Part shown: positions 17,616 to 41,005 of the stretch, piece after piece
How the letters are laid out: each line of letters starts with the position of its first letter
How positions within the stretch are numbered: position 1 is the stretch's first letter
DNA from: an uncultured Candidatus Peribacteria bacterium
GTDB taxonomy: Bacteria; Patescibacteriota; Gracilibacteria; Peribacterales; Peribacteraceae
Direction of reading: 5' to 3'
NCBI GenBank assembly: GCA_964478005.1
Contig: CAYZGJ010000002.1
Coordinates: 1-41,005, forward strand
DNA length: 41,005 bases
Made by a program: the position numbers and the translations under genes
The notes under the pieces: generated by a model
What the model was told of the DNA's origin: nothing
Database searches by the model: none
What the model saw: only the letters and a program-made list of their open reading frames with translations

Positions 17616-17659
17616 GGAAGCTGAGGAGGGAAAAGAAGCGAAGGAAGCGAAGGAGTACT

Positions 17660-33907: not shown

Positions 33908-33935
33908 GGACGAGGGACTAAGGACTAAGGACGAA
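33908..33935. repeat. Heptamer array GGACTAA family x4 (UUAGUCC on the mRNA) upstream of the rplW start
   Basis: ggacgag|ggactaa|ggactaa|ggacgaa. Confidence 0.85.
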
Positions 33936-35887: not shown

Positions 35888-37174
35888 TTATCGCACTGCG
35901 CTGATCTGCTTCATGCGCGTGAATGCGCGTGTCCCATGCTTTCCCAGGGCCATGCCGAATCCGCTGTCTTTCCAGCCACACCACACTCCTTCCAGAAATG
36001 GAAGATTCGCATCGTTCTGCCAGACCATTCCGACATGTAATTGTGAGGCAATCCTCTGAAACGCCTCTGCGTCCGCTGTCCAGACCGATGCGCCGAGGCC
36101 ATAGGGTGTCTGATTGGCAAGGGAGATCGCTTCTGCCTCGGAAGTGAAACGATGCACGGGGAGGATCGGCCCGAATGTTTCTTCTTTCCACAGAAGACCT
36201 TCCGCGCTGTCGCATTCCAGCACTGTCGGCTCGATGCGCTCTGCCTTCTCATCGATCGTGCCACCCGTCACCACCCGGCACCCGCGGGAGCGCGCATCCT
36301 CCAGATGGTGCCGCACGATGTCAAACTGCTCCCGGGATGCAAAGCGCGTCCTGGGTTGCGCGCGCACCGCATCTTTCAATGCGTCCAGGAATGCATCGGC
36401 GATATCCGCGTGCACGAAGACGCGCTCCACGGAGGTGCAGCACTGTCCGTTGTTCATCATTCCATGGAGCGCAATCAACGCAGCGGTTTGCTGCAAATCA
36501 CAATCCGGCAAGATGATGGCCGCATCCTTCCCACCCATTTCCAAAAGACAGGGAATCATATTTTCACCGCAACGTCGCGCAATCTCTTTCCCCACCTTCG
36601 TCGATCCCGTAAACGAAATCATATCGACATCCGCTTCCACCAATGCGCGGCCCGTCGCGTCATCGGAGGGAAGAACCTGCAACACACCTTCCGGCAGTCC
36701 TGCTTCCGTGAAGATGCGCTCGATCCACTGGGCCGTTTCCGGTGTGAGGGGAGACGGCTTGAACAAGACGGCATTCCCCGCCATCAGCGCGGGGGCGATG
36801 GTCCAGAGCGGCGTATCCAGCGGGAAGTTCCACGGCTTGATCGCACCAATGACGCCGAGCGGCTCAAAGTGCAGCATGGTGGAACGCGCGTTCGCCGTCT
36901 CTCCTTCGTGCTCCACAGGTTCCGGTGCGAGGTAGGCGGGTGCCTTGGCGGCGAAGAATTCGAGGATCTGCTGAGAGTACGCACAATCCGAGAGTGCCTC
37001 CTCCATGAGTTTGCCCATTTCCCTGTTGATCGTCTCCGCTGCTGCCTGACAATGCTCCCCCAGCACCTGACTCGCTTTGCGGAGCACGGCGGATCGCTCT
37101 TTCATGGACTCTGCCGCCCACTGCTTCTGCGCTGCGCGCGCTTGTCGGATATGCGAGGAAAGATCAGGAGTCAT
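35888..37174 (-). CDS. Aldehyde dehydrogenase family protein
   Basis: ATG 37174 in ORF 35888..37327. KPWNFPL, FTGSTKVGKEI, LEMGGKD, NNGQCCTSVERVFV, EETFGPILPV. Confidence 0.88.
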   Translation of the reverse strand: MTPDLSSHIRQARAAQKQWAAESMKERSAVLRKASQVLGEHCQAAAETINREMGKLMEEALSDCAYSQQILEFFAAKAPAYLAPEPVEHEGETANARSTMLHFEPLGVIGAIKPWNFPLDTPLWTIAPALMAGNAVLFKPSPLTPETAQWIERIFTEAGLPEGVLQVLPSDDATGRALVEADVDMISFTGSTKVGKEIARRCGENMIPCLLEMGGKDAAIILPDCDLQQTAALIALHGMMNNGQCCTSVERVFVHADIADAFLDALKDAVRAQPRTRFASREQFDIVRHHLEDARSRGCRVVTGGTIDEKAERIEPTVLECDSAEGLLWKEETFGPILPVHRFTSEAEAISLANQTPYGLGASVWTADAEAFQRIASQLHVGMVWQNDANLPFLEGVWCGWKDSGFGMALGKHGTRAFTRMKQISAVR

Positions 37175-37238
37175 GGTGAAGAGTGTAATGCTCCCATGAT
37201 GTATTACCAATTGAATAATCACCTCCACCATCCCCAAC

Positions 37239-37267
37239 CTGACAAAGTACAAAATTCCCGCTATCCT
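37239..37267 (+). promoter_or_regulatory. Promoter cTGACA-17-TATCCT placed 7 nt before ATG 37275 (leaderless configuration)
   Basis: ctgaca (37239-44), 17-nt spacer, tatcct (37262-67), ctctgcc, ATG. The -10 box lies inside the 33-bp direct repeat. Confidence 0.4.
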
Positions 37268-37290
37268 CTCTGCCATGGACCCCATCCGTC
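37258..37290 (+). repeat. 33-bp perfect direct repeat, copy 1 (contains the -10-like box, the ATG and the first 5 codons, MDPIR)
   Basis: ccgctatcctctctgccatggaccccatccgtc is identical to 37962-37994. Confidence 0.95.
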
Positions 37291-37832
37291 CAGCAGAACG
37301 GATCGCCATCCTGGTGGACGGCAGCAACCTCTACCACTATCTGCGCGAACTACAATTGCGCGGACTTGCTGAGTTGGACTACCGGGCGTTTGCACAGCAG
37401 CTCGCGCACGGTCGCACTGTTGTTTCTGCCACATATTACATCGGCAAGGTACGATCGCATGGTGATGCCAAGGGGGAAGAGCTGCGCAAGTGGCAGCAAC
37501 GACTCGTCGCTCGGCTGCAGCAGATGGATTGGAGGGTGGAATTCGGACACATGATGGAAAATCGCGGCGTTTTTCAGGAGAAAGGCGTCGATGTCCACAT
37601 GGCCGTCGATCTGCTTACGGGTGCGTACGATGACCGGTATGACACAGCCGTGCTCGTGAGTTCCGATACGGATCTCATCCCTGCGATTCGCTGCGTCCGA
37701 CAGAAGGGGAAATCTGTCGAGTACGTCGGCTTTGCTCATCGTCCCTCATTCGGACTGATCAAGAACGCGGATGTCACGACGACGCTGCGTTTGCCGGATC
37801 TCCTTCCATTGCTCCGCAATACTCAACCATAA
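37275..37832 (+). CDS. NYN (LabA/DUF88-like) domain protein, predicted RNase
   Basis: IAILVDGSNLYHYL...KGVDVHMAVDLL...AVLVSSDTDLIPAI.... Confidence 0.85.
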   Translation: MDPIRPAERIAILVDGSNLYHYLRELQLRGLAELDYRAFAQQLAHGRTVVSATYYIGKVRSHGDAKGEELRKWQQRLVARLQQMDWRVEFGHMMENRGVFQEKGVDVHMAVDLLTGAYDDRYDTAVLVSSDTDLIPAIRCVRQKGKSVEYVGFAHRPSFGLIKNADVTTTLRLPDLLPLLRNTQP

Positions 37833-37833
37833 A

Positions 37834-37870
37834 ACCCGCCGTCCGCCGAAGCGGAGGGACGGGTGGGTTT
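37834..37870 (+). terminator. Terminator-like hairpin after the NYN gene
   Basis: acccgccgtccgc-cgaa-gcggagggacgggt, then gggttt. About 12 bp with a small bulge and a short T-run. Confidence 0.5.
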
Positions 37871-37961
37871 AGTACATCTATTGTATCTCTATTCAGACAT
37901 ATTGCAAGTGCGGAGGCGGCCATTTTGTCTGACATCTCCTGCTTCTCCTCCCCGGTAAACA

Positions 37962-37994
37962 CCGCTATCCTCTCTGCCATGGACCCCATCCGTC
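37962..37994 (+). repeat. 33-bp perfect direct repeat, copy 2 (lysS start region)
   Basis: Identical to 37258-37290. Confidence 0.95.
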
Positions 37995-40087
37995 ATCAGA
38001 AAGCAGAGAAGATCCGGGCCGCGGGCGGACAGCCCTACGCCGCGACGTTTGATCGCAGTCACGCCTTGCAGGAAGCGAAGGAGCAGCCCGACGGCACGCA
38101 GGTGTCGATCGCCGGGCGCGTGATGCTGCTGCGCGACATGGGCAAGATGCTGTTTGCAACCCTGCAGGACCACACGGGCAGGTTGCAGATCGCGCTGAAG
38201 GTCGATCAGATCGGACAGGAGGAGTACGACCGCTTCGTCGCTCTCGTGGACCTGGGCGACATCATCGGCGTCACGGGCGAGCGATTCGCAACCCAGCGGG
38301 GCGAGCCGACGGTGGGCGTCACCAAGTGGACGATGCTCAGCAAGGCGCTGCGCCAGCCGCCGGAGAAGTGGCACGGCGTCAGCGACCAGGAAACGCTGTG
38401 GCGCCAGCGCTACCTCGACCTCACGTCCAACCGCGCCACCTTCGATCGCTTCCTCTTCCGCAGCCGGTTCCTGAAATTCCTGCGTGAGTTCTACTGGGAA
38501 CAGGGATTCACGGAAGTGGAGACGCCCGTGCTGGTGAATGCCGCGAGCGGCGCGCTGGCCACGCCCTTCCGGACCCATCACAACGCGTACGATACCGATG
38601 TCTTCCTGCGCATCGCGCCGGAAACCTACCTGAAGGAGTGCATCGTGGGCGGCTTCGACCGCGTGTTCGAGATCGGCCGCGTCTTCCGCAACGAGGGCCT
38701 GGACCCCTCCCACCTGCAGGACTTCACGATGGTGGAGCACTACGCGGCATACTGGGACTACACAGACAACATGGCCTTCACCGAGGCGATGCTCTCCACC
38801 GTGCTGGAGAAACTGGTCGGAACCCTGAAGGTGCAGATTCCCGACCGCGACGGCAGCCTGGTGGAGGTCGCCTTCACCCCGCCCTGGCCGCGGCTGTCCC
38901 TGCGCGAAGTCATTCAACGCGATTGCGGGATTGACATCGAGGTGTGTGATTCCGCTTCAGCCCTGCGGGAAGCCGTAAAAGCAAAGAACATCCGCCTGGA
39001 AGTGGACATGGAAACGCTGGGACGCGGCAACCTGATCGACCAGCTGTACAAGAAGGTCAGCCGGCCCTCCATCGTCCAGCCGACCTTCATCACGCAACAC
39101 CCCATCGACCTCTCGCCGCTGGCGCGCACGAATAATGCCAACCCCCAGATCACCGATCGGTTCCAGCTGGTGGTGGGCGGCTGGGAGATCGTCAACGCCT
39201 ACAGCGAGCTCATTGATCCAGTGGATCAGGCGCAGCGGTTTGAGCAGCAGTCCGCCGCGGCGGACGGCGGCGACAGCGACGCTCACCGCAAGGATGACGA
39301 GTTCGTGACGGCGCTGGAGTACGGCTGCCCCCCCTGCAGCGGCTTTGGCATGGGGATCGACCGCATCGTCGCGCTGCTGACCCAACAGATGAACCTGCGC
39401 GATGTGGTGCTGTTCCCGCTGCTGAAACCAAGCAAGAACCAGAGTCACTCCTTAGCTTCTTTTGATTCCTTAGCTTCCTCTTCATCCATGTCCTCCCCCC
39501 TCCCCCTTCAGCACGCCTCCTACGGCCACCTCCTCCCCGCCGCCCATGCCCTTCTCGAAGCGCACACTGATCAGACCCGCGCGCACCTGATCGCGACCGG
39601 AGCCGCCATGGAGGCATTCGCCAAGCGCTTTGGCGGCGACGAGCAAACGTGGAAGGTGGCGGGCATGCTCCATGATCTGGACTGGGACCAGCTCGACAAG
39701 GACTACGAGGCTCACTGTGGTGACACATTGGAACACCTCCTCTCCACCATCGAGGCGCCCGCGGAACTGCTCGCAGATATCCGCGCACACTACGCCTCCA
39801 AGTACGGAGAGGAATATCCGCTGGATACGATGCTGCGGAAGACCTTGTACTGCGTGGATGAGCTGACCGGCTTCATCATCGCGGTCGCCCTGGTGCGGCC
39901 GAGCAAGAGCCTGAGCGATGTGGAAGTGAAGAGCGTCACCAAGAAGCTGAAGGACAAGGCCTTCGCCGCCCAGGTGGACCGCGCGCAGATCCGCGCGTGC
40001 GAGGAACTGCTCGCGATGCCCCTCGACGAGTTCGTCGGCGTGACGCTGGAGGCAATGAAGACAGTGGCCAAGGACATCGGTCTGTGA
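37979..40087 (+). CDS. lysS: Lysine--tRNA ligase (class II) fused in frame to a C-terminal HD-superfamily hydrolase domain (COG2316-like)
   Basis: ATG 37979 in ORF 37925..40087. The LysRS core runs to ...RDVVLFPLLKP (about 39430). A low-complexity linker follows. From ATG 39488, the HD-type domain contains ...AGMLHDLDWD...CVDELTGFIIAVALVRPSKSLSDVEVKSVTKKLKDKAFAAQVDR.... Confidence 0.88.
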   Translation: MDPIRHQKAEKIRAAGGQPYAATFDRSHALQEAKEQPDGTQVSIAGRVMLLRDMGKMLFATLQDHTGRLQIALKVDQIGQEEYDRFVALVDLGDIIGVTGERFATQRGEPTVGVTKWTMLSKALRQPPEKWHGVSDQETLWRQRYLDLTSNRATFDRFLFRSRFLKFLREFYWEQGFTEVETPVLVNAASGALATPFRTHHNAYDTDVFLRIAPETYLKECIVGGFDRVFEIGRVFRNEGLDPSHLQDFTMVEHYAAYWDYTDNMAFTEAMLSTVLEKLVGTLKVQIPDRDGSLVEVAFTPPWPRLSLREVIQRDCGIDIEVCDSASALREAVKAKNIRLEVDMETLGRGNLIDQLYKKVSRPSIVQPTFITQHPIDLSPLARTNNANPQITDRFQLVVGGWEIVNAYSELIDPVDQAQRFEQQSAAADGGDSDAHRKDDEFVTALEYGCPPCSGFGMGIDRIVALLTQQMNLRDVVLFPLLKPSKNQSHSLASFDSLASSSSMSSPLPLQHASYGHLLPAAHALLEAHTDQTRAHLIATGAAMEAFAKRFGGDEQTWKVAGMLHDLDWDQLDKDYEAHCGDTLEHLLSTIEAPAELLADIRAHYASKYGEEYPLDTMLRKTLYCVDELTGFIIAVALVRPSKSLSDVEVKSVTKKLKDKAFAAQVDRAQIRACEELLAMPLDEFVGVTLEAMKTVAKDIGL
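39449..39477 (+). repeat. 11-nt direct repeat TCCTTAGCTTC x2 (18-nt period) in the LysRS-HD linker
   Basis: tccttagcttc at 39449-59 and 39467-77. Related to the CCTTAGT word of the 33908-33935 spacer array. Confidence 0.75.
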
Positions 40088-40100
40088 GACTCTTGGGACG

Positions 40101-41005
40101 ATGGCCTACCGTCTCTTCGCCCTCCTCAAACGTTGCTGGGTCGCCCTGGGGCAGCCGGCGCCGGGATTCGTGCGCGGCGTGCGGCGGTTGTTGAGCCGCC
40201 GGTATCCCGTACGGGTGCCGGGATCGTTTCCCGTTTCGTACCGTCGCGGCAGACCCCATTCCCTGAAACCCGACATCGCGGTCATCATTCCCTGCCACAA
40301 CTACGGGCGTTTCCTGGGAGACGCCATCGAGAGCGTGCTTGCCCAGACGCTTCTTCCCGCGGAGATTCTCGTGGTCGATGATGCATCGGAAGATGACACC
40401 GGTACAATTGTCCAATCCTACGCAAAACGCGGGGTGCGGCTGCACCGCGTCACACATCGGAATCTTTCCGCCACACGCAATGACGGAATGAGGCAGACCA
40501 GTGCCCCCTTCCTCGTCTTCCTCGATGCCGACGACCGGTTGCCCCCGCACTATCTGGAACGCTGCCGGGCTGCCTTCACGGATCCGGCAGTCGCCCTGGC
40601 CTACGGAGACATGCATGAATTCGGGGAGCGCCGGCACATCGTGCGCATGCCGCCGTACGAAGCATCGATGCTCCTGCGGAGCAACTTCATCTCCTCTCAT
40701 GCCATGATCCGGCGTCAGGCGCTGGATATGGTTGGAGGATACCGGTCCTTACCCCATATCCTGGAGGATTGGGATCTCTACCGCCGCATCCTGCGCTTCC
40801 GCTGGATCGCAAAAAAGGTAGATACATTTGTGCACTACCGCATCCACCCGCAGAGCATGCTCCACCGCCATCAGCGCGCGGGGCATTCCTACGCTACCGG
40901 AGCCGCGCTTCTCCACATGCCCCTCACCATCTTCTCCCCCTTTTGCGGCCGGACCGCGATCCTCCCCCGCTTCACCGAAGCGTTGCAACGATTGGAATGG
41001 GACGA
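40101..41005 (+). CDS. Family 2 glycosyltransferase (3' end runs off the window)
   Basis: Not in the ORF track because there is no stop. My translation from ATG 40101 gives MAYRLFALLKRCW...DIAVIIPCHNYGRFLGDAIESVLAQTLLPAEILVVDDASEDDTG...FLVFLDADDRL... Confidence 0.8.
   Translation, partial: MAYRLFALLKRCWVALGQPAPGFVRGVRRLLSRRYPVRVPGSFPVSYRRGRPHSLKPDIAVIIPCHNYGRFLGDAIESVLAQTLLPAEILVVDDASEDDTGTIVQSYAKRGVRLHRVTHRNLSATRNDGMRQTSAPFLVFLDADDRLPPHYLERCRAAFTDPAVALAYGDMHEFGERRHIVRMPPYEASMLLRSNFISSHAMIRRQALDMVGGYRSLPHILEDWDLYRRILRFRWIAKKVDTFVHYRIHPQSMLHRHQRAGHSYATGAALLHMPLTIFSPFCGRTAILPRFTEALQRLEWD

Follow-up and report, generated by a model that had tools for sequence, protein, structure and literature searches.

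A class II lysyl-tRNA synthetase continued in frame into an HD-superfamily phosphohydrolase domain in a Candidatus Peribacteria genome

The stretch of DNA analysed here (the window, 41,005 nucleotides in length) comes from an uncultured Candidatus Peribacteria bacterium and constitutes contig C2 of a 1.13-Mb genome that is 91.5% complete. Near its 3′ end, on the plus strand, lies a gene in which a class II lysyl-tRNA synthetase (LysRS) continues through a short linker into an HD-superfamily domain. Its frame runs without internal stop from either a TTG at 37925 or an ATG at 37979 (MDPIRHQ...) to a TGA stop codon at 40085-40087, as determined by frame analysis. The product of this gene is recorded in the database with 702 aa, which fits the ATG as start, and this ATG falls within a 33-bp repeat copy (37962-37994, plus strand) that is identical to 37258-37290. 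Because the database protein and the repeat agree, 37979 is the more likely start. The repeat itself is an exact direct repeat that spans the start and the first five codons of both a NYN-domain gene and lysS, the two proteins opening with the same residues, MDPIR.

The first part of the gene (37979-39430, plus strand) encodes the LysRS core, with an OB-fold anticodon-binding domain and a class II catalytic domain. It is a full-length class II LysS that exceeds the curated cut-offs of both NF001756 (570.5 bits, cut-off 468) and TIGR00499 (504.1 bits, cut-off 427.6, model positions 5-487 of 488), and it matches the Pfam models tRNA-synt_2 and tRNA_anti-codon with 263.9 and 57.9 bits. The match covers residues 21-502 of a 720-aa reading of the frame, its last residues (...RDVVLFPLLKP) being encoded up to nucleotide 39430. 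The core is followed by a Ser-rich low-complexity linker of 19 codons, SKNQSHSLASFDSLASSSS (39431-39487, plus strand), that is predicted to be disordered, and then by an in-frame ATG at 39488-39490 and the HD-superfamily (HDIG-type) phosphohydrolase domain (39488-40084, plus strand, 199 aa), which is all-helical and belongs to an uncharacterised family. The original prediction, which had been made from the sequence alone, had drawn the same boundaries (a core ending near 39430, a 19-codon linker, an ATG at 39488) and had proposed an in-frame fusion, and the profile match, the open frame and a renewed reading of nucleotides 39431-39487 all agree with it. A full-length AlphaFold2 (AF2) model gives a predicted local distance difference test score (pLDDT) below 50 for residues 474-512, which is consistent with a disordered tether; this is a monomer model from a shallow alignment, with a predicted template-modelling score (pTM) of 0.46, sizeable low-confidence regions in the LysRS part and no docking information. 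At the level of the sequence, the gene at 37979-40087 is confirmed as coding for one predicted 702-aa polypeptide that consists of a class II LysRS, a disordered tether and an HD domain.

The HD module contains AGMLHDLDWD, DELTGFIIAVALVRPSK and KKLKDKAFAAQVDR. Its predicted metal ligands on the plus strand are H33 (39584-86), H62-D63 (39671-76), H76 (39713-15), H101 (39788-90) and D124 (39857-59). All six are invariant in a 71-sequence alignment of the family (A2); in a more diverse alignment of 75 sequences (A1), H33, H62, D63 and H101 are invariant and H76 nearly so, and D124 falls outside the set of columns that reach 90% conservation. Both alignments also have G128, F159 and R165 as invariant residues. 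With this binuclear-type H...HD...H...H...D ligand set intact, the domain looks catalytically competent. A further hallmark is the family-specific basic motif KSVTKKLKDKAFAAQVDR (K148-R165, pattern KSVxKKxKDKxFAAxVxR; 39929-39982, plus strand), in which K152 is nearly invariant in A1, and K155 and K157 in A2. This motif is absent from YqeK, the HD-type hydrolase discussed below, lies outside the part of the domain that can be aligned with it, and is a candidate substrate-binding element for a polyanion.

Membership in the HD superfamily follows from the conserved metal ligands, the all-helical model and the nature of the best structural matches. Taken alone, the HD domain of the window stays below the cut-offs of the general models (PF01966, 16.6 bits against 22; TIGR00277, 20.2 bits against 27.6, E 4e-4), and family members that are 33-49% identical to it pass the Pfam HD cut-off. 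An AF2 model of the domain built on the 71-sequence alignment is all-helical, with a mean pLDDT of 95.2 and a pTM of 0.91. When it was compared with the PDB by Foldseek, the top matches were all HD proteins (probability 1.0), namely PgpH, 3M1T, the beta subunit of E. coli glycyl-tRNA synthetase (GlyRS), YqeK and 2PQ7, but none of the PDB matches reached an E value below 1e-3 (best E 0.018, template-modelling score, TM, at most 0.50). In the absence of a close Foldseek neighbour, no function can be transferred from structure. A single-sequence search of the domain against PDB sequences yielded no match even at E 10.

The nearest relatives of solved structure at the level of sequence profiles are the YqeK proteins (COG1713, TIGR00488), symmetrical hydrolases of diadenosine tetraphosphate (Ap4A) and other Np4N in Firmicutes (PDB 2O08, 2OGI, 3CCG, 8WMY and 8JJA). 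A profile of the family finds the YqeK chain 8JJA as the best PDB match (E 4.7e-7) and also 2OGI, 8WMY, 2O08 and 3CCG, in an alignment limited to the N-terminal ~55 residues. With hhalign, three YqeK proteins from the same class of bacteria align at 95% probability over ~100 columns (18-121), such that H33, H62-D63, H101 and D124 pair with YqeK H21, H50-D51, H110 and D128, whereas the C-terminal ~75 residues remain unmatched. The two families thus have in common the HD fold, a length of ~190 aa and the aligned H, HD, H and D ligands. Furthermore, YqeK is likewise found fused to an enzyme whose nucleotide chemistry it polices (NadD-YqeK, PRK07152), and its substrate Ap4A is a product of LysRS (PMC10148737). 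However, TIGR00488 scores family members at 16-21 bits where YqeK membership requires 70 (70.15 bits, which implies similarity over the whole protein with its nucleotide-binding C-terminal half), and does not match the HD domain of the window at all. Apart from its N-terminal half, the domain does not align, its C-terminal third with the basic motif being family-specific; the Foldseek TM to YqeK is 0.40; the fusion partner is LysRS and not NadD; and the hydrolase activity of the present family is a predicted one. By sequence, therefore, the domain is related to YqeK without being a member, as had been proposed originally, and is without a solved or characterised close relative.

The family is large: in the representative library, clustered at 50% identity, 2081 clusters match at E <=1e-3, and 845 still do so when the limit is set to 1e-10. 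Most members are stand-alone proteins of ~185 aa that pass the Pfam HD model and carry names such as ‘HD domain-containing protein’ or ‘HDIG domain-containing metalloprotein’, in Dictyoglomus, Desulfolucanica, Fervidobacterium, Dehalococcoidia, Bathyarchaeia and others. Such stand-alone proteins, for example those of Dictyoglomus and Desulfolucanica, are 33-49% identical to the window domain over 84-91% of its length and have the same invariant residues and C-terminal motif; unlike the window domain, members of this type are free-standing and, outside the candidate phyla radiation (CPR), are not found beside lysS, and they are equally uncharacterised. Much closer are the stand-alone orthologues of ~197 aa in Peregrinibacteria, which are 75-86% identical to the window domain, so that the resemblance to stand-alone HD hydrolases that had been noticed at first amounts to the same protein existing as a separate gene. 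Their Joint Genome Institute (JGI) label, ‘predicted hydrolase (HD superfamily)’, corresponds to the old name of COG2316, so that they would be of COG2316 type, as had been proposed. Stand-alone members also match weakly the HD half of the model for the archaeal tRNA methyltransferase Trm56 (NF009343, best E 4e-7, 29 bits). In the representative library, fusions of the family to partners other than LysRS comprise trigger factor-HD, PAS-GGDEF-HD, HD-RdgB and AMMECR1-HD.

How widespread is the arrangement seen in the window? A search with residues 505-720, confined to proteins of similar total length, retrieved 303 proteins, of which the best 120 have 408-859 aa (nearly all 690-760), carry tRNA-synt_2 and OB domains, and are 70-83% identical to the window protein in the C-terminal domain. 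In more than 100 protein clusters of 690-760 aa, LysRS is followed by this same HD domain; the named ones are lysine--tRNA ligases of Candidatus Peribacteria, Peribacteraceae or Peregrinibacteria. Within the bacterial family of the window, the domain is present in 21 of the 24 other genomes sampled. Of these 21, 17 have it as the in-frame continuation of a class II LysRS, as do five of six in the same genus. That assemblies made independently agree on the fusion and at the same time have different linkers speaks against an artefact of assembly. A survey of fused versus separate genes, as had been suggested, uncovers both arrangements. One genome bin (G020) contains two different class II LysRS-HD fusion genes on its contigs C11 and C12, whose HD parts are 78% and 75% identical to that of the window (L020 and L036); paralogy, strain mixture or contamination are possible origins of this pair.

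The separate genes led to what is the most informative result of this analysis, namely that the HD protein is linked to LysRS whichever class the latter belongs to. We classified by tblastn 69 HD loci from the family and class of the window, which are not a random sample. In 50 of them the domain is fused to, or lies on the same strand close to, a LysRS of either class (30 fused, 20 nearby). The fused loci comprise 27 class II LysRS-HD fusions (two of them in TGA-recoded genomes, L066 and L068), two triple fusions in which DUF2000 stands between class II LysRS and HD (L019 and L071), and one fusion to a class I LysRS (L073), a 738-aa frame with Pfam matches to PF01921 (315 bits), Anticodon_2 and HD. 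At the 20 nearby loci, a LysRS of either class is encoded on the same strand within ~1.3 kb, mostly less than 0.6 kb, and only once downstream (L059); the remaining 19 loci have the HD gene alone. A class I LysRS (PF01921) is directly upstream of the HD gene in L002-L005, L010 and L042-L044, with a 4-nt overlap in L004, and in L006 and L007 the HD gene is directly 3′ of a gene for a class II LysRS-DUF2000 protein. Even within the genus of the window, one finds class II LysRS-HD, LysRS-DUF2000-HD and LysRS-DUF2000 with a separate HD gene (L009).

A rapidly computed maximum-likelihood tree of the HD domains, in which many inner branches are weak and from which counts of changes are therefore rough, places the Peribacteraceae copies in one clade of 29 rows (SH-aLRT support 98), where class-II-fused, class-I-adjacent and DUF2000-bearing copies are intermingled. 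In a second clade, the copies linked to class I LysRS, among them the class I fusion, group together (SH-aLRT 94) and are nested among class II fusions (larger clade 99). On this tree, LysRS class changes at least six times and the fused or separate state at least 16 times. Fusion to two unrelated LysRS folds, together with retention beside lysS through class swaps, suggests that the HD protein and LysRS act on something that they share. We consider it very probable that the fusion is real and functionally linked to LysRS, and the HD protein would be a dedicated LysRS partner in the Peribacteraceae and in further lineages of their class, with both probably working together.

Additional domains come between LysRS and HD in some relatives. 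In the representative library or at the loci, these inserts are DUF2000, NUDIX, HAD and a tRNA_bind-B3/4 combination. DUF2000 (PF09391), presumably of a peptidyl-tRNA-hydrolase-like fold, gave nothing significant when its segment was searched against PDB sequences. It is absent from the window protein, which is thus no LysRS-DUF2000-HD triple fusion, and was not found in the 91.5%-complete genome either, but is present at L019 and L009 of the same genus. Several side observations belong here. At L053, L055, L069, L070, L045 and L078, ~0.5-1.3 kb that the DUF2000 query did not match separate LysRS from the HD gene and may hold other inserted domains or genes. In genome G010 (contig C47, L017 and L037), ~960 nt lie between class I lysS and the HD gene, with an open reading frame (ORF) MVNVNIHEAKAKLSHYLKMVQDG... 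and a 29-aa remnant of the HD N-terminus, and class I lysS matches in two frames; the inserted ORF resembles an antitoxin of Phd/YefM type. In the window's own genome (G000), another contig has near its edge (C89:1-875, plus strand) a NUDIX match (1-300) and an HD match (573-875), the latter within an open frame of 930 aa and the former within one of 128 aa.

Outside the class, the picture is different. In 80 loci from many phyla of bacteria and archaea (L082-L161), LysRS adjacency was found three times, in one of the Saccharibacteria, one other member of the Patescibacteria and one unclassified bacterium. At the 78 loci of other phyla, the immediate neighbour on the upstream side is most often UvrA (11), followed by class II LysRS (3) and SecG (3), and on the downstream side RNase R (13), with SmpB in 3, counts that are not phylogenetically independent. 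The neighbours RNase R, SmpB and SecG partly match the secG-rnr-smpB cluster of Firmicutes. In Dictyoglomus (L079 and L081), which has no lysS at this place, the stand-alone HD gene is part of the run argS, a gene of metallo-beta-lactamase fold, HD, queT and tyrS, a context of aminoacyl-tRNA synthetases and tRNA modification.

The linker deserves closer attention, because it contains a tandem direct repeat (39449-39484, plus strand) of two 18-nt units, six codons each, that both open with the exact 11-mer TCCTTAGCTTC. Its copies at 39449 and 39467 are the two in the window, with 0.29 expected at one mismatch or fewer; the longer 18-nt copies are 72% alike, and TAG occurs in them solely out of frame (39453-55 and 39471-73). 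The duplication and the position of its TAGs are as the original prediction had described them. Its further claim that the repeat is related to a CCTTAGT word at 33908-33935 failed, since nothing but the 7-mer TCCTTAG is shared, at chance frequency. We reject a shared ancestry of the linker repeat and the array at 33918-33931, the common 7-mer not being significant: TCCTTAG is tandemly duplicated at each site, which makes for two independent occurrences, and from base composition ~16 copies of its 6-mer core CCTTAG should occur in the window. On the minus strand, at 17617-17654, a short array rich in pyrimidines has three near-copies of the linker word (TCCTCAGCTTC once and TCCTTCGCTTC twice).

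The ATG at 39488-39490 (plus strand) aligns with the start codon of the stand-alone HD orthologues, which from this Met onwards match the query over its full length (100%), and is a possible internal start; the surroundings read MSSPLPLQHASYGH in the window and MSAPLLEHASYGH in L009. The 40 nt upstream contain 7.5% G and 82% pyrimidine. So little G is found before 9 of the 3524 internal in-frame ATGs of the genome (0.26%), as compared with 6% of crude first-ATG starts, and the composition log-odds of this leader is reached by three of the 3524. The spacers 5′ of stand-alone HD genes are likewise G-poor and made of short pyrimidine words, for instance TTTCCACT twice in L027. At L010 (genome G016), the spacer from the class I lysS stop to the HD start reads (CCCTAG)x4, CCCTAA CCCAAA CCCT, ATG, and is a G-poor repeat leader with stop codons inside the repeat unit. 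The linkers of fused relatives each have their own sequence of roughly 20-60 aa, rich in S, A, P, K and Q, and most of these relatives have no Met at the position of 39488. The window nevertheless has a hexapeptide periodicity and the motif ASFDS[LF]ASS (9/11 residues) in common with the fused L024 of another genus, and DSL.SS...LPLQH in common with L022.

The G-poor, pyrimidine-rich linker and the Met that aligns with the stand-alone start count in favour of the linker having once been an intergenic spacer, whereas Ser/Pro-rich linkers are G-poor through their codon choice alone; we regard such an origin as plausible but unproven. Since the linker motif is common to fused orthologues of other genera, the fusion was not made recently in the window genome, and the class II fusions in several families of the class likewise speak against a recent origin there. 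The direction of change may have been either, by loss or by gain of a stop. A leader-like linker with a conserved ATG might yield the hydrolase both tethered and free from one gene.

What could such a tethered hydrolase be doing? The tether would hold a phosphoester or phosphoanhydride hydrolase at the synthetase, and the HD domain would destroy or recycle a phosphorylated compound that is made or bound at LysRS. The likeliest single candidate would be a dinucleoside polyphosphate (Ap4A/Ap4N) or a related adenylylated by-product. As a whole, a LysRS-tethered HD hydrolase that clears a phosphorylated compound, most likely of Ap4A type, is in our view the best explanation, with a probability of roughly 0.6. 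The narrower proposal of a free nucleotide by-product of Ap4A type as the substrate is a guess that we would hold at somewhat below even odds. Both the catalytic activity of the HD domain and its functional coupling to LysRS are what we infer here. LysRS is the classic producer of Ap4A and YqeK an HD-type Ap4A hydrolase (PMC10148737). The Ap4A reading is favoured because the nearest solved sequence relatives are the YqeK hydrolases, and because relatives add NUDIX or HAD nucleotide hydrolases between LysRS and HD. We also count in its favour that, among 201 genomes of the class, only 3 have YqeK itself, and that it was not found in any of 23 genomes from the family of the window. A complementary distribution of the HD family and YqeK was considered and dropped as uninformative, YqeK being nearly absent from the whole class.

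A number of observations fit an Ap4A clean-up less well. As is the case for ArgRS, amino acid activation by class I LysRS requires tRNA (PMC11961388, citing Ibba et al. 1999), such that the fusion and linkage of HD to class I LysRS, as well as its linkage to argS in Dictyoglomus, would be poorly accounted for. The RNase R, SmpB, SecG and UvrA contexts outside the CPR point elsewhere, and the DUF2000 and B3/4 inserts point to aminoacyl-tRNA and not to nucleotides. The domain is, moreover, not a YqeK, with only the N-terminal ~100 columns alignable and a different basic C-terminal third, and it has no close solved fold (Foldseek E 0.018 at best, TM <=0.5). Nor is the link obligatory, the family being present in 62 of the 201 genomes sampled from the class. 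Our literature search found no characterisation of the HD family, no description of a LysRS-HD fusion and nothing under COG2316 or DUF2000.

Several of these points would be accommodated if the HD domain acted on tRNA(Lys), Lys-tRNA(Lys) or another RNA end and were tethered to LysRS because LysRS binds the same tRNA, an account that we consider possible but on balance somewhat unlikely. Possible activities are those of a 2′,3′-cyclic phosphodiesterase or 3′-phosphatase that heals tRNA ends, Np4-decapping, or proofreading and recycling together with DUF2000 and B3/4. This account draws on the fact that HD follows both LysRS classes, up to the class I fusion, which counts against Ap4A clean-up; what the two classes share is tRNA(Lys), lysine and ATP but not tRNA-independent adenylate formation (PMC11961388). 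It is also in keeping with relatives that insert a tRNA-binding and PheRS-type B3/4 domain or DUF2000, with the weak Trm56 match (NF009343) of stand-alone members, with the argS-metallo-beta-lactamase-HD-queT-tyrS run and the RNase R (13/78) and SmpB contexts, and with the conserved Lys/Arg-rich motif, which would suit a polyanionic ligand. Furthermore, the HD domain of E. coli GlyRS beta, which lies near the tRNA acceptor arm (PMC8464048), is among the top fold matches (TM 0.46-0.50). On the other hand, the NUDIX and HAD inserts point to nucleotides, and the neighbour counts lack phylogenetic independence. We know of no aminoacyl-tRNA deacylase of the HD family. The CCA-adding enzyme of the genome already carries an HD domain, so that the known type of end repair is present; the candidate function of supplying a missing tRNA 3′-end repair is weakened by this. 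A more far-reaching version, in which HD would be a new kind of tRNA(Lys)-directed enzyme that forms, with DUF2000, B3/4, NUDIX and HAD, a lysine-specific quality-control and repair station following tRNA(Lys) with either LysRS class, is in our estimate unlikely.

The GlyRS comparison also allows for an HD domain that is not catalytic at all and aids LysRS in binding or positioning tRNA. There is precedent for an HD fold within an aminoacyl-tRNA synthetase that affects a tRNA transfer step (PMC8464048), and GlyRS beta chains (PDB 7EIV and 7YSE) are, as mentioned, HD-fold modules built into a synthetase that appear among the top Foldseek matches. Yet the GlyRS module, which handles tRNA and lies inside the beta subunit without a C-terminal tether, no longer has the His-Asp doublet (replaced by Ser393-Lys394 in E. 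coli; PMC8464048), whereas H62-D63 and the other ligands are retained here across the family, which is also widespread as a free-standing, enzyme-like protein of 185 aa far from any aminoacyl-tRNA synthetase. A non-catalytic role is thus very unlikely. Even more improbable is that two genes were wrongly joined by an indel that hides a stop; as a separate matter, the fusion may be real and HD may be made from ATG 39488 as well. The tandem repeat in the linker is prone to slippage, the ATG aligns with the stand-alone start codon behind a leader as G-poor and pyrimidine-rich as the start-codon leaders of the genome (3/3524 internal ATGs), and separate LysRS and HD genes occur in the same genus (L009). 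However, 17 of the 21 other genomes of the window's family that have the domain assemble as an in-frame fusion with different linkers, the repeat consists of whole codons (18 nt), the linker peptide motif is common to fused orthologues, a scan for promoters and terminators gave no candidate site within the linker or close to it, and most fused relatives lack the Met. What is left of the odds belongs to something other than these nucleotide, RNA or tRNA, non-catalytic and artefact readings.

Whichever compound is cleared, a LysRS-tethered hydrolase would resemble AlaX and the AlaRS editing domain, PheRS B3/4 and LysX (MprF-LysRS), in that a synthetase is joined to, or stands beside, an enzyme acting on its product or by-product, and the B3/4 editing domain itself occurs in some LysRS-HD relatives. 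These known cases are ester hydrolases or transferases that act on aminoacyl-tRNA, while the present one is an HD phosphohydrolase. To our knowledge, no HD phosphohydrolase has been described as an accessory of an aminoacyl-tRNA synthetase, textbooks credit LysRS with no appended hydrolase domain, and both LysRS classes are regarded as having no appended editing or clean-up domain. A hydrolase that was fused independently to two unrelated LysRS classes and kept beside lysS through swaps is a strong ‘Rosetta-stone’ signal, and gives a functional context, be it LysRS chemistry or tRNA(Lys), to an HD family of ~2000 clusters (50% identity). Control of an Ap4A-type by-product and service to tRNA(Lys) would each be an accessory activity new to aminoacyl-tRNA synthetases, and the answer would bear on nucleotide economy or on the protection of translation in minimal-genome CPR bacteria.

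With respect to the surroundings of the gene, an Rfam scan of 36500-41005 detected no T-box and no other RNA family. Downstream, an ORF on the plus strand for a GT2 glycosyltransferase (40101-41005) runs off the window. A GT2 gene is also 3′ of the HD gene in L002-L007; it is a conserved downstream neighbour that is probably not part of the LysRS-HD module.

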